Shown here piece after piece: positions 1,370-59,563 of a DNA stretch of 64,000 nucleotides (the first letter of the stretch is position 1; every line of letters starts with the position of its first letter). The position numbers were made by a program, and so were the translations under genes. The stretch is taken from the NCBI GenBank assembly GCA_000002435.2, contig CM018791.1; one strand, given 5' to 3'. The DNA comes from Giardia intestinalis. Its lineage: Eukaryota. A model generated the notes under the pieces. It searched no databases. It had not been told where the DNA came from and saw nothing but the letters and a program-made list of their open reading frames with translations.

Positions 1370-3058
1370 ATGGTCCTCTGGCTACTCCTCCTCGCGCTTA
1401 CTACATCTGCATACCTCCCCAGCAGGATGCTCGTCCTGTACGACGGCCCGGAGATCGCGTCTAAAGACCTCCAGCTCATCCTGACGGGTGCTCGGATTGC
1501 TTCTCGTTCGATGCGAATGGATGACCCTAAATTTAAACTTCCGAAGCTTGTACTTGATGGAGTCCCCCAGTACTCTCATATAGCCATCATTGGTCGGGGG
1601 AACCATCTGACTGCAGAAAATTATAATGAGCTGCTTAAATATGTGGAGGGAACACTCGATCCATACAGCTCCAAGTTGACGGAGGACGAGAGAATGATTC
1701 TTCCGACGTCTAGCAGCGATAGATGGACCACAGCGATGAAGTATCCTACAGAGTATGTCTATAAAGGCATCTTTGAGCCGCTGCCAGGAGCATCTATTGC
1801 AATATTCACCGACGCACATGCTTGCCAGAGGCTTCTCAACCTACTTAAAAACCTGGGTATGAAGGCCATTAGGAGCACCTCTTCTGAAATGGGGGCCCTC
1901 AAGCTCAGCACGGCTTTGAAGGAGAAGCTGTCTCGTGGGGAACAATCTGGGTGTGACATTATAGGTGACGTCAGCTATAAGCCTCTAAAACAGCCTTTGT
2001 CAGATATACTCTCATTTACCCCCAACTTCCTTTCAGATGTACAGAAGGCACATGAAATATTCACATTTGAGAGCTCCTCCCGTGAGCTGACCGCAGGACT
2101 GGTCTGGCAAGGCCTTGAGAACAATGCCCGGGTGATTGCGATAGGCTTTCTCGGTGCCTTGGCTGACACGACCATGATGATGAGCAATGCTTCTTCAGAG
2201 CAATACTTTAAGGAGTGGAATGCTAAAGAGGGAACAAACCGCAGCATATATGAATACAGCACCCTTCCCGAAGGCTCTATCCAGGCATTCTATCAGCTAA
2301 GTCGCTGGTTTGGGTTTGCAAAGTGCATGTTACGCGTTTCTGTTCTAGATGCGCGGCCAGTTCAAGACCCATCAGGATGTGACAACACTGTTCCGGCTCA
2401 GCACGGGGAAGCTCATGGAAACACAGCTGTGGTTGAAGGAAACCTTGTCCACTACATTGTCAAGATAGAGGAGCTAGTTAATAATACGCTTTGGAGACCT
2501 TATGTCCCCAAAAAGACTGCGGTACGTCTGGACGAACTAGTGACAAACAACGCCCGTCGCCATCCAGAAGACTATGGCCTGTTTCCGTCTGAAACACGGC
2601 AAATCAAAAAGCAAATATCAGCGCTGTCTAGCGGCCTGTATAGCAGGTGTCTTCAATCCGCCCGCAAGGACTTGATCAATCAGACACAGGACATTACCGT
2701 GACGGACGCTCTTTCCTCCATATACACAGACATACAACTGCATGAGTCCATCATGGGTACTTTAATATCTATGAATTTAGCCCTGCTGGACGAGAAGAAA
2801 GGTCTCTTTGATTTGGTGATCGTTCCAGATCTGGTTAGGTCCTACCACATGAGATTAGATTACAATGTTCCTGGATATAATAGAATCAAGCTCATCCACC
2901 ACCTGCACGTGAACATGGACCGCACAGATGCTTTCTATAAACACTATGCCGATTGGCCTCTGTTTGTGGGGCTGGGGTGTGTACTTCTATTGGCCGTGTA
3001 CGCAGGAATACTGCTTCTCACACACAAGGAAACGCGTACGGAAGAAAAGGAAGAGTAA
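1370..3058 (+). CDS. Hypothetical type-I membrane protein (N-terminal signal peptide, C-terminal TM helix)
   Basis: 562-aa ORF with an ATG start. The hydrophobic N-terminus MVLWLLLLALTTSAYL looks like a signal peptide and the C-terminus GLGCVLLLAVYAGILLLTHK like a TM anchor. Its start codon lies 11 bp from the start of the divergent upstream gene. Confidence 0.55.
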   Translation: MVLWLLLLALTTSAYLPSRMLVLYDGPEIASKDLQLILTGARIASRSMRMDDPKFKLPKLVLDGVPQYSHIAIIGRGNHLTAENYNELLKYVEGTLDPYSSKLTEDERMILPTSSSDRWTTAMKYPTEYVYKGIFEPLPGASIAIFTDAHACQRLLNLLKNLGMKAIRSTSSEMGALKLSTALKEKLSRGEQSGCDIIGDVSYKPLKQPLSDILSFTPNFLSDVQKAHEIFTFESSSRELTAGLVWQGLENNARVIAIGFLGALADTTMMMSNASSEQYFKEWNAKEGTNRSIYEYSTLPEGSIQAFYQLSRWFGFAKCMLRVSVLDARPVQDPSGCDNTVPAQHGEAHGNTAVVEGNLVHYIVKIEELVNNTLWRPYVPKKTAVRLDELVTNNARRHPEDYGLFPSETRQIKKQISALSSGLYSRCLQSARKDLINQTQDITVTDALSSIYTDIQLHESIMGTLISMNLALLDEKKGLFDLVIVPDLVRSYHMRLDYNVPGYNRIKLIHHLHVNMDRTDAFYKHYADWPLFVGLGCVLLLAVYAGILLLTHKETRTEEKEE

Positions 3059-3061
3059 AAT

Positions 3062-5440
3062 CTATCGTTTGACATTTCTCCGGAAGCTCAGTTTGGTAGT
3101 CTGCGACTCCGCCTTGGGGATCTCTTTAGAGACCTGGGAGACGACCTCAAGTGGTGTACCAATTGCTAGCCATCTGTTGAGTTTGATCATGCGCTCACTA
3201 ACTTCTGTACAGCAAATGGCAGTGGCTTTGTTGGCTATTATAATGCTGTGGTTGTACACTAAGAAATTACTCGTGGTGCCTGTACATGAGGACTTGCCAG
3301 AAGGATTCACAATAGCTCCAGAGAAGAGTGTGCGAAAGCCGCTGCTGGTACGTTGAGCAACTGTCATGTGACTCGTCAGTGCAAGGCATAGTTTGATAAT
3401 GTCCCCGGTCTCCGCAGCCAGGGACGTGTCGGACATAAGGTCTGGAAGCTGCACGTATGAGCGTAGAAACTCAAATAGGGTATCTTTATGGAGCTTGAGG
3501 ATCTTGTCCAAGACATCCTCCAGTTGACGAGCAACCTGATTAGCCTGGTGGTAGCTCTGGGAAGCCATACCTGTCTTTGGCAGTGGACCCACTAGAGCAT
3601 ATAGGAGAGAAAGGTGATCTGACCCCTGACAAAGAAGTGGCGCGCTGCTGGCACCTAGCAAATCATCCCAGCCAACCTCAAGGCCTGCAGCAATCAGACA
3701 GGCCTCTCTCTGAACACCGTAATAGTATGCAACCATTAAGAAGAGCGCAGTCCTGGGAGAAACAGGTAACAGCGTGGCAGCAAGACCAGCTACCGAAATG
3801 CACAGTGTTGGTTTATGTGTAACTGAAGATGACCTGGCCGTCGTCAAGAGGTAAGTATAGTACAGTATCTGCTTAGTTAATGAGAGCTTAGCAGAGTCTA
3901 CTAGATCAAGTAGATCGGTAGTCTCGAGACAGAATGAAAACGATGGAAAAGACTCCTTGAATCGCTGCGAAAACGACTGCAGCATCAGATATATGTGATC
4001 TATGGGCTCGAACTGGAGCGATGAATGTGGATTGATAAGCATCTCGTTCTCAGCGACATACTTTGGATAGAGGAAGATGCATGTGCCGTGCTGAGTGCGC
4101 CCAACACGCCCTCTCCGCTGCATGTGCGATGACATGGTGATGGGTACAACCACCAATACGCTTGTGCTGTGCTCAGGAAGATACACCATCCGCTTTTGAA
4201 GGCCCGAGTCAATCACATACCTGATTCCAGGGATTGTCACGGAGGTTTCTGCTACATTGGTGGCCAAGATGATCCTTCGCCTGCCAGTAATTGGGCTGAA
4301 AGGATACATAGCTTGCTGAGCAGGGATTTTGGAGTGGAATGGGATGACTACCCATGGCCTCCCACCCTGCTTTCCAGCCCCTAACACTGACAGTCGCTCC
4401 CATAGAAGGGCAAGGCAAACTGCTATGTCATCTGCACCGGAAAGAAACACCAAGATTCCATCATCCAGGGAGGTATTAGTGGTATGCAAGGTGACAATCT
4501 CGTCAACAATCTGCAAAATGTAGTCCTCTCTGCATGGTTGGAAGGATACGTCTGTTGAATACTGTGGATTGTCTAGTGAGATGGATGTAGAGGCAGTGTA
4601 TCGACGAACATATTGCAGCAGCTGGACCTCATCCAAGGTTGCAGACATCAAGATCACATGTACCCTAGGGTTGTACCTGATCACACGAAGCACTATAGCT
4701 AGAAGTAGAATCTGGTTACTGGAGCGCTCGTGGATTTCGTCCAGAATAAGATATGATACGTTTAGCAAACATGGGTCATCCAAGAGGTATTGCAGGGTGA
4801 CACCATCCGTCTGGTAGATCAGCTTGGTCTCAGGCGTAACCGTTGATTGAAATCGGACCGCGTATGCAACAGCCTGACGAAGATTGCCCGGTAAAGCTTG
4901 CTGCTGGTATCCTGCAAGACTGATAGCAGCCACTCTGCGTGGCTCAGAGACGATGATCCTTCCTTGTGGCTCGGTACTAAGCAAGGCAGCTGGAATACAG
5001 GTTGACTTACCAGAGCCAGTCGCCCCCTTAACAAGAACCACTTGGTTGGAAGCCAGCGCTTTTTGCAATGACGCGAAGTAGGTCCAATCCTTACCCAGCT
5101 GTGGGCCGCAGGAAAGACTTTTAACGGCCCGCACAGAGGAGGAGAGCGTACTATTCTTACAAAGGTCTGCCAAGAGTTGCATGTTCTTGCTATAATATCG
5201 CTGTACTTTCTCTCCAAGTGCTGAAGCGTGTTGGTCAACTACGGAGCGCGAGTGTATTGACCTTTTGAGGAGCACTGATCCTGGGTCACGTATCACTTGA
5301 AGGTCGAGGTTGTGCAGTGAAAGAGACGTGTGCTCTTCCTCAAAAAGCTCATGGTCACGAATGAACTGAACGCACGGCCTCATGAGTCTGTTAAATAAAA
5401 CAGGATTTGGTGAGACATGGCTCGTCCACATACCGCTCAT
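3062..5440 (-). CDS. DEAH-box ATP-dependent RNA helicase
   Basis: The helicase motifs are present: I GATGSGKST, Ia SEPRRVAAIS, II DEIHERS (DEAH box), III SAT, V ILATNVAETSVTIPGIRYVIDSG and VI QRRGRVGRTQHG. The true start may be the internal Met at ~5383, which sits in an AT-rich context. Confidence 0.85.
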   Translation of the reverse strand: MSGMWTSHVSPNPVLFNRLMRPCVQFIRDHELFEEEHTSLSLHNLDLQVIRDPGSVLLKRSIHSRSVVDQHASALGEKVQRYYSKNMQLLADLCKNSTLSSSVRAVKSLSCGPQLGKDWTYFASLQKALASNQVVLVKGATGSGKSTCIPAALLSTEPQGRIIVSEPRRVAAISLAGYQQQALPGNLRQAVAYAVRFQSTVTPETKLIYQTDGVTLQYLLDDPCLLNVSYLILDEIHERSSNQILLLAIVLRVIRYNPRVHVILMSATLDEVQLLQYVRRYTASTSISLDNPQYSTDVSFQPCREDYILQIVDEIVTLHTTNTSLDDGILVFLSGADDIAVCLALLWERLSVLGAGKQGGRPWVVIPFHSKIPAQQAMYPFSPITGRRRIILATNVAETSVTIPGIRYVIDSGLQKRMVYLPEHSTSVLVVVPITMSSHMQRRGRVGRTQHGTCIFLYPKYVAENEMLINPHSSLQFEPIDHIYLMLQSFSQRFKESFPSFSFCLETTDLLDLVDSAKLSLTKQILYYTYLLTTARSSSVTHKPTLCISVAGLAATLLPVSPRTALFLMVAYYYGVQREACLIAAGLEVGWDDLLGASSAPLLCQGSDHLSLLYALVGPLPKTGMASQSYHQANQVARQLEDVLDKILKLHKDTLFEFLRSYVQLPDLMSDTSLAAETGDIIKLCLALTSHMTVAQRTSSGFRTLFSGAIVNPSGKSSCTGTTSNFLVYNHSIIIANKATAICCTEVSERMIKLNRWLAIGTPLEVVSQVSKEIPKAESQTTKLSFRRNVKR

Positions 5441-48676: not shown

Positions 48677-51600
48677 TTAGTCGAAAAGATCGTGCTCAAT
48701 GTCCGAAAGAATACTCTTCAGACCATCATCCATGCAATCGTATCCAGCTTCACTCGCCCTGGTCAGCCGGTCATCGATATTGTTGCGTTTGGCACCCTGC
48801 TCCTCTTCTTCTGCATCAAACCTATTTTTGGATCGTGCTCTGGTGGTCTGATCCAAACTACCGGATTGTCCGGAAGTAGCCCCAGTGGATCTCTTGTCCA
48901 AAAGCTTTTTGAAGGTCTTCTCCTGGAAATTGCCGCCTTCCATTCTCTTTACAAAATCTCGTATTCTCTGATCCCTTTGTTTGAGAAGCTCCTCCTTCAC
49001 TGTCGTCTCCCCTGCGCGTCGCTCCTTTTCCTTCCGCTCATACTCCTTCCGTCTCCTTATCGCCTTCTTACGTTCTATTTCAAATTGAGTCTCAGATAGA
49101 ATTTTTGATCTTAGCGGGGAAAGGATTGGTCCAATCACTGGATGAATGACAGAGCTATGCGGTAGTGTCCTCTCTCTTCTAAGAGGCATATAGGAGCCGC
49201 TGTGCTCGAAGTTATACGTTGCGCTGAGCGGCATGGTAGATGGTGGAGTGGTAGATCTCGTTTGGTGCCTACTGTGAGTGCGCGTTGATGCGCTGTGCTT
49301 ACTTCCTGGGAGATCAACTGTGGGTGGGGACTCTAGATACGACGGCAAAGGAGGTCTGGGATTGTGTGCTGCTAAAGAAAGGTCATCAGTTAATATAGGC
49401 CGGGGCAGCCTGGATTTTCCGCCAGAGTCTGGTCTTGAGCGTGCTGGTCTTGTCATGCTCTGGCTATCGACATCTAACTCGTCAGTTTCTTCAAGATAGA
49501 TGCTGGACGGGTAGGCTCCCACGGATATTCCACTTGGTTTAGAAGTGGATTCCCGAGCTTCAGTGTGGGAATTGCTGTTAAAAGACACGTGCTGCTTATC
49601 GCGTTTTGGGGTTTCTCGTGTACAGCTACGCGCAGATGTTGTCCTCTTCTGAGGCGTTCTAGTGCTTTGGGCAATAGTGGTGCTGGATTGGGAGCTTTGC
49701 TCGTCATTCTTTTCATCTCTTTTTGGGGTGTCGAAGCGCCTCCGAGGGGTCGCAAGCTTATCTATCCTCTCTTGGGAGGCCTTGCGTTTTGCTTCAGTTG
49801 CAGTTATATCTGGCGTAAGTTTTCGCTCACTCCGATAATCTATCTTCTTTGTCTCTTTCTGTTGGGTCTTCTGCTTTTTCTGTTGTAGAATAAGCTCCCG
49901 TTGCCTATATAAGGCCTCGAGCTGTTTGCGCATTTCTTCCCGGCGTAGAATAGTCTCTTCCTTTTCCGCAATAATAGATTTCTGTGAAGAGTCTTCTCCA
50001 CGCAGGAATTGTGGCAGTGAATCTTGATCGTAGGCTGTGTCGAACGTGAGTGTAGGGTAGCTCTTACTGTTGTTGCTGGTCTCCTCGTCATTGTTATCGT
50101 TATCATTATCATTTGCTTGTAATTGACTAAAGGTGTAATCTTCAGTAACATTTTCTAGCTCCGAAGTATCTCTAAGTGGTGTATCAGCTTGCAGTTGCTC
50201 TGGGCTGACGTGGCTTGTGCTGCTCACACGCCTATCAATGCTTATTTTATCCAGCTGAGGTCTGCTAAATAATACTTCAATTTCGGGACTCTGGACTGCG
50301 GGAACGGCGCTGAATGTGTTGCTACTAGTTAAGGACTCAAGCCTTTGCATATGCTTATTTACCGTGCTAATCAGTTCATCAACGCTATCATGGCGTGGAG
50401 GATGCGATACTTTGGTTGTGTTTTTGACATCTTCGAGCTGAGTGCCTGGTGTAGATGGGGCGGATGCACGGTTTCTTATCGCTGATAGAACACTTGGGCC
50501 CTCAATAGGGCTTGCATCAGGTGGCGTAGTCTGTCGGACACCCTTTTCAATTCGTTGCGTGATTGTTTCACGTAGTTTTGTATAGATAGTGACGCGTTCA
50601 CGTTCGGCCCGCTCAATTTGGAGTCGCGGAGAGTCAGTTGGTTTGAGGACGGATATGTTTGAAACCTCTGGGACATGGGACCCTGATTCCAGAGTAGAGC
50701 ATGCTTTTGCTTCCGAGTGATCGCTTTTCTTTGAGCCAGGACCTTGCTTACGTAGATTTTGCTCATCGACGCATATAGAAAGCACACTATCTGTCTCACC
50801 CACATCTCCACTAGGAATAGGGAGTCGGGGGTACCGAACTTTACAAGTTTCTGGCACATATGGCTTGGCAACCACTTCGTCGGCGGCCACTGTCCGTGAC
50901 ATGTTGGGGGCCTTAAGGTCTGAAGTTGTAAGTGAGCCAAGGTCTTGAGGGATATCGTACGACTCAAATGCATTTGCCGTGTTTGTCTCACGCTTAGCAT
51001 GTGATCGAGGCCATGTTTCCATTACGGCTTCCAGAACGTTATCGACTGAATCAGCAATGGCATCGATGACTCTCTCTCTTTGTATAGCTAAGAGGTCTGT
51101 AAATCCTTGGTCAACAACGTCCTCTCCAAATAGCTTTATCAGTCCCGTTCTCACCAACTCTACTTTAGACGCCAACGCCCTTCCGTCTGGTACATGATCT
51201 GACACGGCACTCATTTCAGCGCCAAGAACGGCTCTGCGCGCCTCACTGTCACATGTGCTTGCTAATTTGATGTACTCCGTCTTCGTTTCTGATGACAAGG
51301 AAGTGAATTCTATGAGTGCATGTGCATAGGCAAGAGAAACCATGACTTGCTGAAGTGCCGACTCAGAGTTTCGTGTTATGGCGGCAAGTGCTTCCTCAAC
51401 CTGTAATAACTCTTGTTCCTCATAGTCGTCTCGCTCCTGCCGGACAACGTTGAGGGACGCATACTCTGCTTGCAAACGTAAAAGCTCCTGCTCTGACTCT
51501 GAAATTGTTACATGGAGCGTTTGGGCCTTCTGTTTTGCTGACCTGCTCCTCCTATCATCGTCTGAGTCGCAGCTATATCTCTTTGTGTCTATTTCTGGTG

Positions 51601-51964
51601 GAGATAGCCTTCCAAGCCCTTCGAGATCACTTTCAGCGCGATCGAAAGAGCCGTTCTTCACCGCTTGTTGGACCTCAGCCGCGTTTAAAATTGCGGCCCG
51701 TAATCGAGTAATGAATGCTATGTTGGCTTGAAAGCGACCAGAATCCCCGCAAATGGTCGAGCCGTTGTAGTGCTGCTTAACAGACTGATACGGAAACAAT
51801 CGATGTAGGAGCTGTGCGGCGTCGAACCGGATGCCATCCTCAATGGAGGTAATTTCTTCCTGCGTAAACGAGGATCCTAGAGACTGTACTTGGAGGTCAA
51901 CCACGCGCTTCCGCAGTGCAGTTACCTCATCCATGAGCGAGGCAGAAGCCCGGGGATTGTCCAT
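48677..51964 (-). CDS. Hypothetical protein with coiled-coil and low-complexity (Ser/Thr/Arg-rich and ND-repeat) regions
   Basis: 1095-aa ORF with an ATG start. Contains the dipeptide-repeat stretch NDNDNDNNDEETSNN. No catalytic motifs. Confidence 0.55.
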   Translation of the reverse strand: MDNPRASASLMDEVTALRKRVVDLQVQSLGSSFTQEEITSIEDGIRFDAAQLLHRLFPYQSVKQHYNGSTICGDSGRFQANIAFITRLRAAILNAAEVQQAVKNGSFDRAESDLEGLGRLSPPEIDTKRYSCDSDDDRRSRSAKQKAQTLHVTISESEQELLRLQAEYASLNVVRQERDDYEEQELLQVEEALAAITRNSESALQQVMVSLAYAHALIEFTSLSSETKTEYIKLASTCDSEARRAVLGAEMSAVSDHVPDGRALASKVELVRTGLIKLFGEDVVDQGFTDLLAIQRERVIDAIADSVDNVLEAVMETWPRSHAKRETNTANAFESYDIPQDLGSLTTSDLKAPNMSRTVAADEVVAKPYVPETCKVRYPRLPIPSGDVGETDSVLSICVDEQNLRKQGPGSKKSDHSEAKACSTLESGSHVPEVSNISVLKPTDSPRLQIERAERERVTIYTKLRETITQRIEKGVRQTTPPDASPIEGPSVLSAIRNRASAPSTPGTQLEDVKNTTKVSHPPRHDSVDELISTVNKHMQRLESLTSSNTFSAVPAVQSPEIEVLFSRPQLDKISIDRRVSSTSHVSPEQLQADTPLRDTSELENVTEDYTFSQLQANDNDNDNNDEETSNNSKSYPTLTFDTAYDQDSLPQFLRGEDSSQKSIIAEKEETILRREEMRKQLEALYRQRELILQQKKQKTQQKETKKIDYRSERKLTPDITATEAKRKASQERIDKLATPRRRFDTPKRDEKNDEQSSQSSTTIAQSTRTPQKRTTSARSCTRETPKRDKQHVSFNSNSHTEARESTSKPSGISVGAYPSSIYLEETDELDVDSQSMTRPARSRPDSGGKSRLPRPILTDDLSLAAHNPRPPLPSYLESPPTVDLPGSKHSASTRTHSRHQTRSTTPPSTMPLSATYNFEHSGSYMPLRRERTLPHSSVIHPVIGPILSPLRSKILSETQFEIERKKAIRRRKEYERKEKERRAGETTVKEELLKQRDQRIRDFVKRMEGGNFQEKTFKKLLDKRSTGATSGQSGSLDQTTRARSKNRFDAEEEEQGAKRNNIDDRLTRASEAGYDCMDDGLKSILSDIEHDLFD

Positions 51965-52667
51965 GCTGCCACACGAGTTCTCCTTTTTCTGGAATTTACC
52001 AAATTTTACTCGGTGTCAGTGACGCATCTGAGCCAGCTAGCAAGGATTTATGATGCTCAAGTGCCACTCGACTTTAGTAGAAGGGGAAAACACGGTGAAG
52101 CCTCGAAGACAATGAAGCACACGTTATTAAGTGCGAGACTCAGTGAACCATAAGTAATGACCCTGCAATAAGTATCTTATATTATCACAAACATAGTTAC
52201 TAATGCATGTCTATATGAGGATAGATTGGGACCTCTGTCTGCGCTGGGTAGCTTATATGCCCCTGGACTTGGCAGTAGTGATTATGGGCAGCCCTCTGTA
52301 TACAGTATTGCACAATCCCTGCTTTGTTCGCGCCCTTCACCCGCAGCGCTTGGCGGTACAACAGGACTCCAGCCAGGCATGGGATGCTTGTCCCACTCCG
52401 AGAGAGCACCAGGATGAACTAGGCCACCCGTGATCAGCGCGACGTTTACTCCACCAACGTCTTACAGGCCGCTGCTTGCTGACCGTGATGTAAGTGCAAT
52501 CAGGCAAGCACGCGTCTGAGTTAGAGCGCCGGTGGAGCAGAGGGGAAGGACCGTGTGACTCGAGATTCACCGCAGATGAACAGCAACCCGCAAGGGACAT
52601 TGCACCCTCGGACTAGCCTGTGAGTAACTGCTTAACGCTCGAATCAACCCGGAGGACCCCCTGCTGT

Positions 52668-53918
52668 CTACATCTTCAGCTTTCTGCGCGGCGCTGACCT
52701 GCTCCGAGCGCCGCCGCTCTTGAGGATGTCCTCCGCCTGGTCGATCACCCCTGCAAGCGCTTTATTGGACACGGAGATGAGCGTGGTGTTGAGCTCCTTG
52801 AGCATCTGGAGGTACCGCTTGTAGCCGGGCGAGTCGTTTGGCTTCAGGAGCCGTGTGAGCGACCAGGGCCCGCCGTCAGAGTCGCGCTCGTTCCAGTCGC
52901 GGAGAACCGCCACCAGGTGGTCCAGGACGTCCCGCGGAAGGCCCTTGTACCCGCGGGCGACGATGTACTTCTCCTCGTTCACGATCCGCGACCTTCCCGG
53001 CTTCACTGTGTGGAGGTCCTGGAAGCAGACAAGTAGGAGGTAGAGGAGGTGGGACGTGAGGACCGTGCAGGAGCCGAACATCTTGACCACCATATTTCCC
53101 GAGTGCTTAAGCAGCCGCAGCCCGGCCACGACCTCGCTGTAGAGGAGCTTCGCCACGATTGACTCCTGAAGGTGCTCGACGTGTCTCCTGCCGCCGGGCC
53201 CTTCGATGAGGAAGCCGCCGTCGGCCAGAAACAAGGCGTACGGCCCGTGGAGCTCCCTGACGGCGGCGTGCAGCTGTGTCAACAGAGTGACGTTGTCTGG
53301 GTTGTAGACAGACCCCGTTCCATCGACCCCCAGCGTGGTCTTCAGCCTCCTGCTGCTGATGAAGGGCTCGAGCCTGGGGTCCCACGTCAGCCCGACCTTC
53401 CCCCCATCGGCAGAGAGGCTCATGGCTACCCCGCGGGCCCTCGGAAAGCGCTCCAGGATGGTGTACGACCAGCCGCCGGGGGCCGAGCAGAGGTCTGCGA
53501 AGAGGAGATCCGGGCCCTCGGGCTGCGTCCCGGTGGAGATGCTCGGGCTGCTGCCGACGAAGGGGACGGCGTCGTCCAGCTGGATCAGCTTGTCGCTCGC
53601 CCTGTTGAGCTGGTTCTTCCGGGATCCGCCGTCGCACTCGGGGTAGAGGCTGTTGCGGGCCCTGACGTACGCCCACCCGCTCCCCTCGTCGTAGATCCTG
53701 TCCAGACGGTGCTGCGTCTCGAAGTATGCCTGAAGGAGGCCAGCCGGCACCAGGTCCTGGTTGTCGTAGAGGCCGTCGTCGAAGACGCTTTTAAAGCGTA
53801 AATCTTCAAGGGAGACGAAGTCCTCCACCGCGAGTGCAGAGTCTGGCCTTTCGTGGGCAGGGATCCAGTCTGCCAGATTGTACACAACGGCCGACCCGGA
53901 GGCAGTCGAGGACGGCAT
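52668..53918 (-). CDS. Cap-specific mRNA (nucleoside-2'-O-)-methyltransferase (CMTR1/FtsJ-like)
   Basis: SAM-binding motif LLFADLCSAPGGWSYTILE aligns with YFADVCAGPGGFSEYVLW. LADGGFLIEGPGGRRHVEHLQE aligns with MADGGFSVEGQENLQE. VVKMFGSCTVLTSHLLYLLLVCFQDLHTVKPGRSRIVNEEKYIVARGYK aligns with [49 protein letters not shown]. GC-rich gene. Confidence 0.65.
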   Translation of the reverse strand: MPSSTASGSAVVYNLADWIPAHERPDSALAVEDFVSLEDLRFKSVFDDGLYDNQDLVPAGLLQAYFETQHRLDRIYDEGSGWAYVRARNSLYPECDGGSRKNQLNRASDKLIQLDDAVPFVGSSPSISTGTQPEGPDLLFADLCSAPGGWSYTILERFPRARGVAMSLSADGGKVGLTWDPRLEPFISSRRLKTTLGVDGTGSVYNPDNVTLLTQLHAAVRELHGPYALFLADGGFLIEGPGGRRHVEHLQESIVAKLLYSEVVAGLRLLKHSGNMVVKMFGSCTVLTSHLLYLLLVCFQDLHTVKPGRSRIVNEEKYIVARGYKGLPRDVLDHLVAVLRDWNERDSDGGPWSLTRLLKPNDSPGYKRYLQMLKELNTTLISVSNKALAGVIDQAEDILKSGGARSRSAPRRKLKM

Positions 53919-54887
53919 GGCCTCGGGGGGTCTTCGGTTTCTTTTTATTGCAGTCCGTGGGGGTCACGGATACGAGCCCGTTCGGGGCAGCCTTCAATCG
54001 CGACCCGTGTCTAACGGCTGGTCCACCCAAGCCAACACAGGCGCCCTTCTCGCATCATGATCGGCGGGGCAGCCGTACCAGCGGACCCCGTTACAGAGGA
54101 CGTCCCTAACAGCGTTCTCGCCGGAGTGCCACCCAAGCGTGCCCACACAGTCGCCGATAGGTTGCGGATGCGATGCTTCTTTGTCCTTCCCCTGCTGTGC
54201 GACGAGAGTATGGCTCCATCCGCCATGCGAAGCTGTCATGTTGGATGGCAAGCGCTGAACCAGGCAGCCAGAGGATGGTCTGTGACTCTGCTGGGTCAGC
54301 CTGTGCCTGTTCTGGAGCATATGACGCAAGCGGTGGCGCCTATAATCGTTTTCTGTTCAAATGAGAAGCAGGCCCTCTTCGATGGAGTCAAGTCCCCATT
54401 ATATGTGCTCATGCGACCCTTCAAGGTAGCAGCCTGCGAGTGCATGGTGTTTGGGTGTGCTTGCCTTGTTATCAATATCAGCAGCTGTATAGGCAGCCCT
54501 TGTCAGTGTCCCTCTTTTCTTCGCCAGTCAATGCACCGATCCTTGCGGAGACGCATGAATGCCTCTCTGCAATGCAGGTCTGTAAGTGCTGCAAGGTCTG
54601 CAAGAACAGGGCTCCTGCTTGATCATAGATTGCCAGACCGGCCCGTCCTGCAGCTGCAGAGGGGCCGCATTCAATGCATGGGATCTGCGGTCTGGTCTCT
54701 AGGTACCTGTACAGCACTGTTGGTCACTTGTGAAGCTATGGACAGGGCGTGCTACTGGATAAACTGAGCATCCATCCACACGCCTGATGCTTAGCGCACC
54801 GGCTGAAACCCTTCTGTCCGTGCTAGCAGGAACAGACACCGAGCAGACCCATCGATGACGGTTTACTACCTAAGTACACAGTTAAAC

Positions 54888-56072
54888 CTACGCCTTCCCG
54901 CGGCAGAGGAACCACCAGCAAAGGAAGCCTACGAGGCCCCCCACAACAACGATGACAGCCACAGCGATGCCTGCAATGGCCCCCGTGCTGAGGCCGCTCT
55001 TGTTGACGCTTCCACCAGTGCCTACTTCTGATTCTAAACATATGACTGAGCTGCCAGATGATGACACACATTGCTTGCATCCAGAGATCTTCTCTGAGCA
55101 CTTCTTGCACGGGCCATCAGTGGTATCGTCACCGTTTTCCTTGTAATACCCAGTGGCACAGGTCTTACACTTATCAGCCGCACCTGCAGTCGAGCACGTA
55201 GCACAAGTAGGATGACATTCTGCACAGTTGCCATCAGTTGCTGCTAAGCCATTGGCACATGCCTGACACTTACCATTGCCTCCCTGTGCACTACTACACA
55301 CTTGCTTGCCAGGCTGTCTATCTGTTTGATAGCAACCGCCGTCCTTGAGGAAGTAGTTATCTTCACATTGAGTGCACACCCCATTACCCATTTTAGTACA
55401 GAAAGTTGCTCGTGAACTGGCCGCACAGTCGCCGTTCAAGGGGGCCTGAGTGGAGGTCTTGCACTTTGAGCAGTATGCAGTTCCTCCTATTTGGGCCCCG
55501 CATGTCTCACAGCCAGTGCCATCTGCAGACACCTTGCACGCATCCCCGCAGGTGCCTCCGTTATTAGGATTGCTGTCATCTGTATATGTCAGTTTCTTGC
55601 CAGCAGGACAGGAACTACACTGATTGTTGGCCGGCCCAACGCACTCAGCGCACTCAGGGTTGCATGCCTTACACTTCTTGTCAGTATCTCCGTAGTATCC
55701 GCTGATGGTCGTGCAGTCAGGTACGCATTGGTTTGTAGGGGTGAGGTAGTTGCCGTCATTACATTCAGTGCAGATTTCACTGTCTGTTTTGGGGTTGTCA
55801 CAGGTCTTACAGTTGGGAGTATTGCACGGCGCTTCTGGGTCCTTGGTGCACTGCTTCGTGTCAGTGTTGATGGTGTAGCCCGGACGGCACGTCTTGCACT
55901 GCTGGGCGTTGCCCTCCACGCAGGTCTCACAGCCCTCGACGTTGCACGGCGCTTCTGGGTCCTTGGTGCACTGCTTCGTGTCAGTGTTGAGGGTGTAGCC
56001 CGGGAAGCATGTGTCCTTCCCGCTGTCCTTTGCCAGCACGGTTGCACAAACTAGGAGAAATCCTACCAACAT
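54888..56072 (-). CDS. Variant-specific surface protein (VSP)
   Basis: Many CXXC motifs, a C-terminal TM helix and the invariant tail ...FLCWWFLCRGKA. The ORF-track start at 56405 is GTG. The signal-peptide Met (MLVGFLLVCATVLA) is the ATG at 56072. Confidence 0.85.
   Translation of the reverse strand: MLVGFLLVCATVLAKDSGKDTCFPGYTLNTDTKQCTKDPEAPCNVEGCETCVEGNAQQCKTCRPGYTINTDTKQCTKDPEAPCNTPNCKTCDNPKTDSEICTECNDGNYLTPTNQCVPDCTTISGYYGDTDKKCKACNPECAECVGPANNQCSSCPAGKKLTYTDDSNPNNGGTCGDACKVSADGTGCETCGAQIGGTAYCSKCKTSTQAPLNGDCAASSRATFCTKMGNGVCTQCEDNYFLKDGGCYQTDRQPGKQVCSSAQGGNGKCQACANGLAATDGNCAECHPTCATCSTAGAADKCKTCATGYYKENGDDTTDGPCKKCSEKISGCKQCVSSSGSSVICLESEVGTGGSVNKSGLSTGAIAGIAVAVIVVVGGLVGFLCWWFLCRGKA
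55801..56040. repeat. Two tandem ~120-bp repeat units inside the VSP coding region
   Basis: The unit caggtctYacag...ttgcacggcgcttctgggtccttggtgcactgcttcgtgtcagtgttgaKggtgtagcccgg occurs twice. It encodes the repeated GYT(L/I)NTDTKQCTKDPEAPCN segment. Confidence 0.6.
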
Positions 56073-56867
56073 TAGCCGGAGTTCGTGTGCTACTGCTTTT
56101 TCATCAGGCTGATGTGTTGCCGCGAGCAGTGAGAGGCAACCGCTCTTGCTCTCTTGATCAGTTGGACTGGAGGAGGACGAGATAGGAGCACACCCATCGG
56201 AGGCTAGTTGATAGTGCAGTTCCCCTTGACTTCGATAGGAACAGGACCAGTGAGGGCCAGACTCAGATCGCACCTCTCTTGTGGAATGATTGTTCGGGGT
56301 GCACTCCTGTACATTGCTGTGGAGTATTCGTCGGCTTCCTCTGCAGGAGTAAGGTGTCTCGGTAGTAAACGTACCGAAGAGTCCTGCCCGTGACTTTCTG
56401 GGCACCGATTGCGAGGGAGCCCCCGGTGTGCGATGGGCTCTAAAAATGCAGTGAGCACAGGCGATCCTTTAGGGCATGCAGCCTCAGAAGAGAGCACCAA
56501 TGTGGCCAGCGCTGGAGGGGCACTAGACCCTGCATGGCCCGCGTGGATGAATGGCGGAGGAGGAGCAGAGAACGCGGGCGAGTGCTGCTAGATGGCCTGT
56601 GCACATGTGGAATAGCCATGACTGCACAGTCGAGGGAGCTGGCGCAGAGTACTAGTAATGCGTGATGGTCACGAGTGGCCAGGACAGACAGGGTGCCATG
56701 ACATGCAAGGGCGCTCCACAGTGTACGGGACGACGTGTCTGCTGTCATGAACACAGATTCGAGAAGCGAGGCTGGCAGGGGCCTGCGCTCTCTTGTAGCC
56801 TCTGAGGGTGCGGCCCAATCACTCGTTCAATCTAATTGCCCGATCTTATTTTTGAGAATAAACTGTC

Positions 56868-59205
56868 ATGGCCGACGGCGATGATTACACAGCCAGCCCC
56901 CCTGCAGCAGCCCCCGTCATCCCACAATTCGTCGTTGAGGAGCTCCACAAGTTGCTGGATGGCGTGCTGGGCAGAGGGGTTACAGGCGTAGTCTACGCCC
57001 TCAGGGGCTATCCGAGTCTCGCCGTGAAGGAGATTCTCCTCGACGGCCTGGGTAAGGGCAACGTGGATGCCATCAGGCTTGAGCTGGCCACCCTCCCCGA
57101 CCTCTCCCACCCGGGGATCCTCAAGTATCATCAAGTGGTTGAGGACGAGGGCTTCATTTACATCGTCATGAATCGCCACGACAAGACACTCGAGCAAGTG
57201 TTTATCGACTGCAAGCGGAGGAAGACCCCCGTCTCTCCCGAGCTGGTCCTCTCCGTTCTGAGGCAGCTCGCCGCCGCCCTCGCCTACCTCCACGGCGTCA
57301 GCGGAGTGGGTGCCGACGGTCGCCCCTACCAGGGCCTCGTCCACCGCGACCTCAGGCCTGCAAGCATTCTCGTCAGCGCAGATGATGAACACTTCATCAT
57401 CGCCGACTTCGGCCTCTGCAAGGACGCCCTGAGATGCGGGAGCACCATTGCAGGCACGGCAGTATACATGGCCCCTGAGATGCTCCTCCACAACGAGGCC
57501 AGCCCCGCCTCCGATGTGTGGAGCCTCGGGGTCATCATTTATGAACTAGTAACTCTGAAGAGGCCGGACTTCTTGGGGGCAAGGAGCCGGCAGAGGTCTT
57601 CGTCGACGGGTGGAGGCCGGACCTGAGCGGTGTCACTGATGGCTTCATAAAGAGTGTTCTGGAGAGGATCTTCGTGCTGGATCCAGTGAAGAGGCCGACG
57701 GCCAGGGAGCTGCACAAGACGTTCGCTACATTCGACATCCCAGTTGGTGAGCTGGGGGCTCAATACGCGGTGCTGAAGTACGAATGCAGCTCCTTGAAGA
57801 CTGCCCTGAATAATGCTAATGCTAGGATTGCTATTCGCGAGGCAGCCCTCGAGAACAGGCCAAGCAAGACCAGCTCCCTAGGACAGGAGCCCCGACTTAA
57901 GACCCCTGGGATTGACGCTCTTGAAGGCCGGACAAAAAATACTTATCCACAATGCAAGCACGAGAAGGTCAGGTTATGCAACTCAGTGGTGCAGTAGCTA
58001 CGATTACCCTTCAACCTGAGGCTCACCTGCTACCCAGACTGATCCGTGCTGCGCACACGAATGACACAGAGACTGTCCGGGTGCTACTTGAAGAGGGAGT
58101 CCGCACCGGCCAGCGTGACAAGCAGAAGATGACGGCCCTCATGCACGCGGCCCAGCAGGGGCACGGTGGGCCTGTTGAGCTGCTTGTTAAGAAGGAAAAG
58201 GGCCTCAGGGACAAAACCGGCTGGACCGCTCTGATGATCGCCGCGGAGAAGGGGAGCCTTGAAGTGGTAAAGCTCCTCCTTGAGCACGAGAAGGGGATGA
58301 AGGACAAGGACGGTAACACGGCCTTCGTGCACGCCCTCAGGAACAAGCACACAGACATAGCTCTGCTCCTTCAGGGATACGAGACGCATTCATGGACCCC
58401 ACTCATGCGCGCGGCTCTCACTGGGGATACTAAGACCGTGAGGAAGCACTTTCTTGATAAGGACACGAGGAACGATAACGGAGACACGGCGCTGATCATA
58501 GCTGCAAGGGCAGGGCACAGGAACATAGTAGAGCTCCTCGACCCCACAAATGAGAATGGCGTCACTGCCCTCATGCGAGCTGTTGACAGAAATGATGTAG
58601 ATACTGTGAAGGCCCTCCTTCCCCTCCAGGGGGGACAGAAAGCGACGGGGAATGTCGAGATAGGCCGCTGGTTCATCTGTAAGGGAACAGCACTGATGAG
58701 GGCAGCAGCACACGGCCACACAAGGATAGTGGAGCTGCTCGTGGAGAAGGAAGGCGGGATGCAAAATAGCAACGGCCGGACAGCTCTCATGACAGCAGCA
58801 GGGAAAGGCCACACAAAGATAGTGGAAATACTCCTGGAGAAGGAGGCGGGCATGAAGGATAGTGACGGATGGACAGCCCTCAGGTGTGCAGCACAAAATG
58901 GCAAGCAAGACTGTGTTAAGCTACTCCTAGAGAAAGAAGGGGGCATGAGAGATAGGAATGGTAAGACGGCCCTTATGATAGCAGCAGAGAAGGGTCACCC
59001 AGAGTGCATTAAGCTTCTGCTGGAGAAGGAGGGTGGGATGCAAACTAGTGGTGGCGAAACCGCCCTCATGTTTGCAGTGTACAACAATCAGATAGAATGC
59101 ATGCAATTCCTCGCAGAGAAGGAGAAGAACATAAACAGGAATCAGCTCTTGGGCATAGCCAAACAAAGAGGCAGTAACGAGATGATGGCCCTTCTCTTAG
59201 AGTAG
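56868..59205 (+). pseudogene. NEK-type protein kinase with C-terminal ankyrin repeats, interrupted by two 1-nt frameshifts (either a pseudogene or homopolymer sequencing errors)
   Basis: The kinase domain (HRDLRPASIL, DFG, APE) is in frame 0 up to the G5 run at ~57575-57579. The kinase C-lobe ...DPVKRPTARELHKTF and a coiled coil continue in a second frame up to the A6 run at ~57934-57939. At least 10 ankyrin repeats follow in a third frame through the stop at 59205. Adding one G and one A restores a single ORF of about 780 aa. Confidence 0.7.
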
Positions 59206-59209
59206 CCAG

Positions 59210-59216
59210 AGTAAAC
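59210..59216 (+). terminator. Poly(A) signal AGTAAAC, 5 nt past the ankyrin-gene stop
   Basis: The sequence is TAG ccag AGTAAAC. rDNA homology begins within about 20 nt downstream. Confidence 0.5.
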
Positions 59217-59224
59217 AGCGATCG

Positions 59225-59511
59225 CCTCTACATCAGACCTTACACATCACAGCCCCGCCACGCAGCAGGACTCCGGGGTCAGCAGCCTCTAGCGCGGGAG
59301 CGAACGCGGCTCAGGGAAGTCGGCAAGCCGGCTCCGTAACCTCGGGAAAAGGAGTGGCTCTGACGGCGCGCCGGGTCAGAACTGGAACGGACGCGGGGAT
59401 CCCGACTGTTTACTAGAAACACAGCGTCGCGAGGGCCGCACCCGGCGCTGGCGCGACGTGATTTCTGCCCAGTGCCACGACCGTCACCGTGAAGCGATCC
59501 GCCGAAGCCCT

Positions 59512-59563
<52 letters not shown>

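Follow-up and report, generated by a model that had tools for sequence, protein, structure and literature searches.

A kinase–ankyrin gene pair in a subtelomeric telomere gene unit of Giardia intestinalis WB: one real frame break and one probable homopolymer error

We have analysed a 64,000-nt window of contig CM018791.1 of Giardia intestinalis (GenBank assembly GCA_000002435.2), near one end of which lies a subtelomeric locus for a Nek protein kinase and ankyrin repeats. Between an ATG at 56868 and a stop codon at 59203-59205, a Nek kinase domain, a coiled-coil segment and ankyrin repeats are spread over the three reading frames of the plus strand. Frame 0 runs from MADGDD to RPDFLG and encodes the N-lobe with the HRD, DFG and APE motifs; beyond that point the kinase frame is lost and a stop follows at 57624-57626. 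The remaining kinase C-lobe and the coiled-coil-like segment are carried by frame 2 (from GKEPAEVFVDGWRPDL to IDALEGRTK), the translation of which reads GKEPAEVFVDGW through IDALEGRTKNTYPQCKHEKVRLCNSVVQ and ends at a stop at 57995-57997. Frame 1 reads KKYLSTMQAREGQ and continues with ankyrin repeats up to 59205. The two frame switches fall on homopolymers, a run of five Gs (G5) and a run of six As (A6). The features of the locus and of the adjoining chromosome end are collected in Table 1.

Table 1. Features of the kinase–ankyrin locus and of the chromosome end in the 64,000-nt window.
Feature	Position	Strand	Evidence
Nek-GL4 kinase gene GL50803_111938 (gPK2; 376 aa in the Sanger assembly)	56868..57997	+	XP_001703982.1, Pfam Pkinase
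Kinase gene pieces left by G5	56868..57626 (frame 0) and 57580..57997 (frame 2)	+	translation, tblastn
G5 run, first frame break, probable undercall of G6	57575..57579	+	XP_001703982.1, AAB51602.1, paralogs
A6 run (57934-57939) plus T (A_AAA_AAT, kinase frame), real 1-nt break, 12 nt upstream of the ankyrin ATG	57934..57940	+	
Ankyrin open reading frame (Protein 21.1 / gANK, 417 aa)	57952..59205	+	exact XP_001703980.1, Pfam Ank
VSP gene ("VSP with INR", CRP136/VSP136 family), first member of the telomere gene unit	54888..56072	-	exact match
3' fragment of large-subunit (LSU) rRNA (truncated rDNA unit)	59297..60348	+	Rfam RF02543, 810.7 bits, model 1891-3399 of 3401
GC-rich rDNA spacer (about 1.9 kb) to the telomere junction	60349..62227	+	sequence reading
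Telomere repeats (TAGGG)n	62228..63857	+	283 of 315 parsed units TAGGG
Noisy fold-back at the contig end	63858..64000	.	degraded reverse-complement telomere repeats

That these three frames belong together is evident from homology. With the Giardia Nek paralogs P0004 and P0009 as queries, tblastn returned three consecutive high-scoring segment pairs in three frames (56868-57584, 57569-57958 and 57934-59202). When both breaks are repaired, the resulting 779-aa sequence is colinear with seven full-length Giardia Nek paralogs and aligns without gaps at both junctions. Pfam recognises a single Pkinase domain (6.4e-36, residues 33-283) that crosses the G-run junction, as well as Ank_2 (1.1e-108) in the ankyrin part, where we counted 11 repeats of the TALM type plus an N-terminal cap (i.e., 11-12 repeats). 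Apart from the two breaks, translations and paralog alignment revealed neither stop codons nor additional indels across the 779 codons. Coordinates, tblastn and Pfam thus agree with the anatomy given in a preliminary description of this DNA: a subtelomeric Nek kinase with a coiled coil and at least 10 ankyrin repeats, laid out in three frames with both joins at homopolymers.

The same description called the kinase catalytically intact-looking, which holds in part. The triad residues K54 (AVKE), D161 (HRD) and D180 (DFG) are all present, as is APE, so that the kinase would count as active by the K72/D166/D184 rule. The catalytic loop, however, reads HRDLRPAS, with K to R and N to S replacements relative to HRDLKPxN, and the canonical Lys and Asn are therefore gone.

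The identity of the locus was established by exact-sequence look-ups in a protein collection of about 15 billion sequences. The 376-aa kinase is XP_001703982.1 of the Sanger-based annotation of strain WB from 2007, ending in NSVVQ before the stop; it is composed of window frame 0 up to DFLG, one added G, and window frame 2 through the terminal IDALEGRTKNTYPQCKHEKVRLCNSVVQ. The 417-aa ankyrin open reading frame (ORF) is identical to XP_001703980.1, annotated as "Protein 21.1". In the window and in the 2007 annotation alike, the kinase and ankyrin ORFs overlap by 46 nt in different frames. The window likewise reproduces exactly a pair of short antisense ORFs from that annotation, XP_001703981.1 and XP_001703983.1. 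As the accessions XP_001703980 to XP_001703987 are consecutive and follow the gene order of the window, the records describe this very locus and not a paralog. Neither the 252-aa product of the G5 version nor the fully repaired 779-aa product has a match in the collection.

Manning et al. (2011; PMC3218828) enter the kinase gene GL50803_111938 in their supplementary kinome table as GK100, a member of Nek-GL4, "Active (K,D,D present)", with the remarks "Cloned as gPK2", "Expression shown by Northern" and "sequence identical to GiardiaDB 2.3". In that table, the kinase sequence continues after DFLG with GKEPAEVF and terminates in IDALEGRTKNTYPQCKHEKVRLCNSVVQ and a stop codon. Pfam shows the kinase domain and the table entry places the gene in Nek-GL4, whereas the TALM repeats expected in the same polypeptide are encoded by a separate ORF, out of frame with the kinase, in the Sanger assembly as in the long-read one. 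Separate naming of the two parts goes back to the 1990s, when they were described as gPK and gANK of a "telomere gene unit" (PMC10999387). On these records, the locus is an already known gene pair in a known subtelomeric unit, annotated since 2007, rather than a newly found, recently decayed gene.

At the A run, old and new sequences coincide. In the Sanger-derived kinase the run is translated as AAA AAT and the reading frame closes at the TAG seen in the window, while the Sanger-derived Protein 21.1 begins at the same ATG in the other frame; A6 is thus reproduced exactly by both ORFs, and its length gives no indication of a miscall. Since two sequencing technologies agree, we take the A6 break to be real. 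The full-length paralogs read straight through the corresponding point (IDALEDQCKEYSAMIKALE in P0004), from which it follows that the window copy has undergone a genuine one-nt frame change with respect to the ancestral fused gene. Judged from these sequences, there is a genuine break at A6, treated in annotation since 2007 as the boundary between two genes. The gPK1 clone of the 1990s (P0068), which seemed at first sight to share the A-run split, was set aside and is not used here, because its tail follows a further, different frame; the same row of the kinome table gives 20 ankyrin repeats for GL50803_113094, the orthologue of gPK1 in WB, so that the clone more likely contains old sequencing errors.

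The G run behaves differently. XP_001703982.1 reads DFLGGKEP, which requires TTG GGG GGC AAG and hence six Gs (G6), where the window has five. An independent clone from another laboratory in the 1990s, AAB51602.1 (P0253), likewise specifies DFLGGKEP and, therefore, G6. All aligned paralogs keep the frame at the position of the G run. G5 thus disagrees with the Sanger-derived run length, and it truncates the kinase to 252 aa. On the strength of these comparisons, G5 is most likely a residual homopolymer undercall of a true G6 in the long-read assembly. Errors of this kind have been documented for the long-read WB reference: PacBio homopolymer errors truncated full-length genes, Illumina data were used to correct an indel only where no fewer than 10 reads mapped and support reached 50% (85 indels in 38 genes), and the chromosome ends may have lower sequencing coverage (Xu et al. 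2020, PMC7000408). In addition, the peptide around the G run, GKEPAEVFVDGWRPDL, occurs 18 times in the WB kinome table, so that short reads at the G run would be ambiguous to place. The off-length telomere units (about 10%) and the fold-back artefact at this end of the contig, together with the lack of a match for the 252-aa product in the protein collection, add to the suspicion against G5. The Sanger-derived proteins, in other words, agree with the window at A6 and disagree with it at G5. The preliminary description had rightly named gene decay and long-read miscalls as the two possible causes, but a choice between both breaks real and both artefactual fails, as A6 is real and G5 a probable error.

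The loss of the gene model appears to be a consequence of G5. Look-ups found an accession of the new WB annotation (KAE) for neither the kinase nor the ankyrin ORF, and the kinase gene model appears to have been dropped from that annotation as a result of G5. Because neither gene carries a KAE accession, GL50803_111938 is likely to be among the 31 "deprecated" kinases of the 2025 kinome re-annotation.

Short-read collections did not yield the gene. Exact products of the 252-aa, 107-aa and 417-aa ORFs, of the 394-aa VSP, of the 376-aa kinase and of paralog P0004 were all absent from the contig index; the neighbouring methyltransferase gene alone matched short Logan contigs (<2 kb), which stop short of the Nek gene. 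A homology search with the last 193 aa of the kinase, a segment that takes in the out-of-frame tail unique to it, retrieved no short-read fragments of the gene, and two scans of JGI metagenomes, one at the protein level and one with a DNA pattern tolerating G5 or G6, were without a match.

How accurate the sequence is elsewhere in the window could be gauged from its other genes. All 10 window ORFs tested in this respect are exact matches to proteins of Giardia intestinalis WB C6 (KAE83033xx / GL50803 identifiers) encoded on a contig of 1,973,847 bp. Over sixteen ORFs, comprising 40,216 nt and 85 homopolymer runs of at least five nt, the earlier WB proteins are reproduced exactly except at G5, which puts homopolymer discrepancies in coding sequence at about one in 85 runs, or one in 40 kb. 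No other homology-supported split gene was seen in the window, in keeping with the earlier remark that this gene is alone in its condition, as far as the sixteen exact ORFs (40.2 kb) extend.

We consider it probable, taken as a whole, that the locus is the known kinase/ankyrin pair of the telomere gene unit, with a real split at A6 and, most likely, an assembly error at G5. A single ancestral gene at a WB C6 chromosome end would have encoded a Nek-GL4 kinase, a coiled coil and ankyrin repeats; the loss of one nt in the A run, now A6, would have split it into the 376-aa kinase gene and the overlapping 417-aa ankyrin ORF. The true G run would be G6, undercalled by the long-read assembly at a paralog-rich chromosome end of low coverage, where short-read correction would have failed. 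Frame disruption is accordingly borne out by independent data at A6 and contradicted by the Sanger-derived proteins at G5, a disagreement that we infer to be an assembly error rather than a new mutation.

The alternative that both frameshifts are real, G6 having been shortened to G5 by deletion in the sequenced WB C6 line or in one allele or copy, so that the kinase is a true pseudogene, is unlikely but deserves consideration, as several points weigh against an assembly error. The choice of G6 over G5 depends on comparison with older Sanger sequences, and one of these, AAB51602.1, is a weak witness because it has frame errors of its own further downstream. G5 outlived the genome-wide Illumina correction applied by the authors of the assembly, and the reads could have supported it; moreover, the assembly is otherwise accurate in the window, 84 of 85 runs being concordant. 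Laboratory lines of WB C6 may differ, and a kinase gene already deprived of its ankyrin tail may be under relaxed constraint. Nek-GL4 genes turn over fast, WB having 29 pseudogenes of this subfamily (Manning et al. 2011), and the Sanger-era paralog XP_001708881.1 (P0313) carries a frameshift some 10 codons downstream of the corresponding position. Furthermore, that the window belongs to the PacBio assembly AACB03 is itself inferred, from the exact protein matches and from PacBio-like artefacts. Against a true pseudogene stand the G6 in two independent Sanger-derived sequences and the lack of further signs of decay over 779 codons; moreover, a new deletion should a priori reach every copy in a tetraploid, binucleate cell during a few years of culture much more rarely than a PacBio homopolymer error persists at a repeated chromosome end of low coverage. 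The converse idea, that both breaks are long-read miscalls and the true gene encodes one intact 779-aa Nek kinase–ankyrin protein, draws on the position of each break at a homopolymer and on the end-to-end alignment of the repaired protein with full-length paralogs. It is effectively refuted by the Sanger-based assembly, which shows the identical A6 configuration with both ORF products exact. The absence of the 779-aa protein from the protein collection and the cloning of separate kinase and ankyrin genes in the 1990s (PMC10999387) speak against it too.

Whether the real split at A6 is also functional is a separate matter. The ankyrin ORF could be expressed on its own from an A/T-rich tract, or -1 slippage on A_AAA_AAT could remake the fusion; we regard a functional split of either kind as a possibility with the odds against it. 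The 30 nt that precede the ATG at 57952 (TGAAGGCCGGACAAAAAATACTTATCCACA) are 60% A+T and include an A/T run of 8 nt. Among verified gene starts in the window the mean is 63% A+T, and an A/T run of at least eight is present in half, while internal in-frame ATGs have a mean of 49% A+T and such a run in only 2.4% of 246 cases. This gene-start-like A/T content makes independent expression of the ankyrin ORF plausible; its predicted product begins with MQAREGQVMQLSGAVATITLQPEAHLLPR (MQAREGQ...). The ORF is open for 417 codons with its TALM repeats intact, A_AAA_AAT is in the register for -1 slippage, with AAA and AAT as zero-frame codons, and Neks together with Protein 21.1 have been argued to be one family (Manning et al. 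2011). On the other hand, the register of the heptamer and the A/T run both arise automatically when A7 is shortened to A6, and such by-products do not count as independent evidence. Neither expression nor peptide data were found for the ankyrin ORF, and its open frame may show only that the split is recent or that there has been gene conversion with other ends of chromosomes. No stimulatory RNA structure is predicted downstream of the heptamer, the z-score of the minimum free energy being -0.19 for 100 nt and +0.35 for 55 nt.

In its most specific form, programmed frameshifting, ribosome or RNA polymerase slippage at A6 would regenerate a fusion of about 779 aa beside the 376-aa kinase, with a predicted trans-frame junction peptide ending in GRTKNYLSTMQAR. 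Giardia ribosomes perform -1 frameshifting on Giardiavirus RNA, and a cellular -1 recoding event here, if true, would be Giardia's first. We nevertheless consider it highly improbable: the earlier opinion to the same effect was reasonable, as the heptamer is in register but is followed by no structure.

The surroundings of the pair conform to the telomere gene unit, defined as a gene for a VSP or cysteine-rich protein, gPK, gANK, rDNA and the telomere (Upcroft and colleagues, summarised in PMC10999387). The VSP gene, the kinase gene and the ankyrin ORF follow each other in that order, and the LSU fragment and the (TAGGG)n tract complete the unit (Table 1). The LSU fragment starts at model position 1891, about 92 nt past the ankyrin stop; it is the only Rfam match within 50000-64000, and no small-subunit rRNA was detected before the telomere. 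The 394-aa VSP product, KAE8303364.1 / XP_001703984.1, has the CRGKA tail at its end and shares a 90% cluster with VSP136-3 and the "cysteine-rich protein" AAB06228.1. With 394 aa, it has the length of VSP136-3; cluster mates of 645 aa and 1937 aa also exist, the former containing four or more tandem units of about 74 aa each, so repeat number varies widely in the CRP136 family.

The 5' flank of the kinase gene (56622-56867) has a conserved counterpart at the gPK1 locus: when translated, this upstream region gives the N-terminal extension of the old clone P0068 (tblastn from 56622), and the spacer between the VSP and kinase genes thus belongs to the repeated unit. A 236-aa ORF with an ATG start (54057-54767, plus strand), located between the methyltransferase and VSP genes, has no exact match in the protein collection, unlike its neighbours, and may be spurious or unannotated.

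The genes at this end of the window (methyltransferase, VSP and Nek, 52668-59205) have close paralogs elsewhere in the WB assembly. The methyltransferase KAE8301906.1 and the full-length Nek P0004 occur together on a contig of 1,539,535 bp, and the 1937-aa VSP KAE8301901.1 is on a contig of 1,485,438 bp, which suggests that the subtelomeric genes have been duplicated and that the other Nek copy is still fused. Many Sanger-era Nek-GL4 models are kinase-only fragments (P0313, P0291-P0293 and P0297, all WB paralogs outside the window). Among the homology matches there were many truncated WB Nek models, one of them, P0313, visibly frameshifted; it ends in VFVTGGGRT, the same out-of-frame tail as that of the window's G5 product, reached by a different indel about 10 codons downstream.

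The telomere tract itself appears to be of much lower quality. Of its 315 units, 32 (about 10%) are off-length, mostly in the G run (11 TAGG, 6 TAGGGG and 7 TAGGGGG), and one G run reaches 13 G; these variants reflect either an unpolished long-read consensus or real heterogeneity of the repeat. The last 143 nt of the contig comprise about 30 nt with a weak resemblance to a SMRTbell hairpin adapter and, after these, degraded repeats that read TAGG(G) in reverse complement (CTACC... in the contig sense); this tail has the appearance of a fold-back read that was never split and stayed in the assembly. The alignment with a SMRTbell adapter sequence scores 29 (shuffled sequences: mean 22.6, standard deviation 2.7, maximum 33), which is suggestive only, a hint of an adapter remnant.

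In biological terms the locus is ordinary, and its main use is as a flag for curation. A potentially active, reportedly expressed Nek-GL4 kinase seems to have gone from the current WB annotation through one G-run error that was probably left uncorrected. For the assembly, the locus offers a local calibration, in which the sole discrepancy in coding sequence lies in a repeated chromosome end. More generally, frame breaks in subtelomeric multigene families need paralog-aware validation with reads before they are counted as pseudogenes. The split at the A run, for its part, exemplifies how an ankyrin-only "Protein 21.1" ORF can arise from a Nek gene, a relationship proposed earlier.

Among known systems, the closest is the pair GL50803_111938 and Protein 21.1 (XP_001703980.1) itself: locus and neighbours are the same, the ankyrin ORF is identical, and the kinase is identical at 376 of 376 residues once one G is restored, the window having G5 where G6 is required. 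The Neks P0004 (985 aa, WB) and P0009 (861 aa) share the order of kinase, coiled-coil linker and TALM ankyrin repeats, colinear over both junctions; MAFFT identity of the repaired full sequence is 70% to P0004 and 65% to P0009, BLASTP local identity is 61% and 55%, respectively, and tblastn identity to P0004 in the kinase N-lobe segment is 77%. Both are single ORFs, whereas the window copy has the A-run break, fewer ankyrin repeats and a coiled coil shortened by gaps of 14 and 21 residues. The PacBio frameshifts described for the WB reference (PMC7000408) are of the same kind as the presumed error at G5, a one-nt G-run undercall that truncates a previously full-length gene; the 85 indels reported there were corrected with Illumina data, while the one in the window apparently escaped, in a repeated subtelomeric region. 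The 29 Nek-GL4 pseudogenes listed for WB by Manning et al. (2011) belong to the same subfamily as the window kinase, yet these authors scored the latter as active, with expression on a Northern blot, and not as a pseudogene (PMC3218828). With the telomere gene unit, finally, the chromosome end shares all five elements in the published order; in the window, a truncated LSU leads into the rDNA spacer to which the telomere is attached, whereas the review places a truncated 18S at that junction (PMC10999387).

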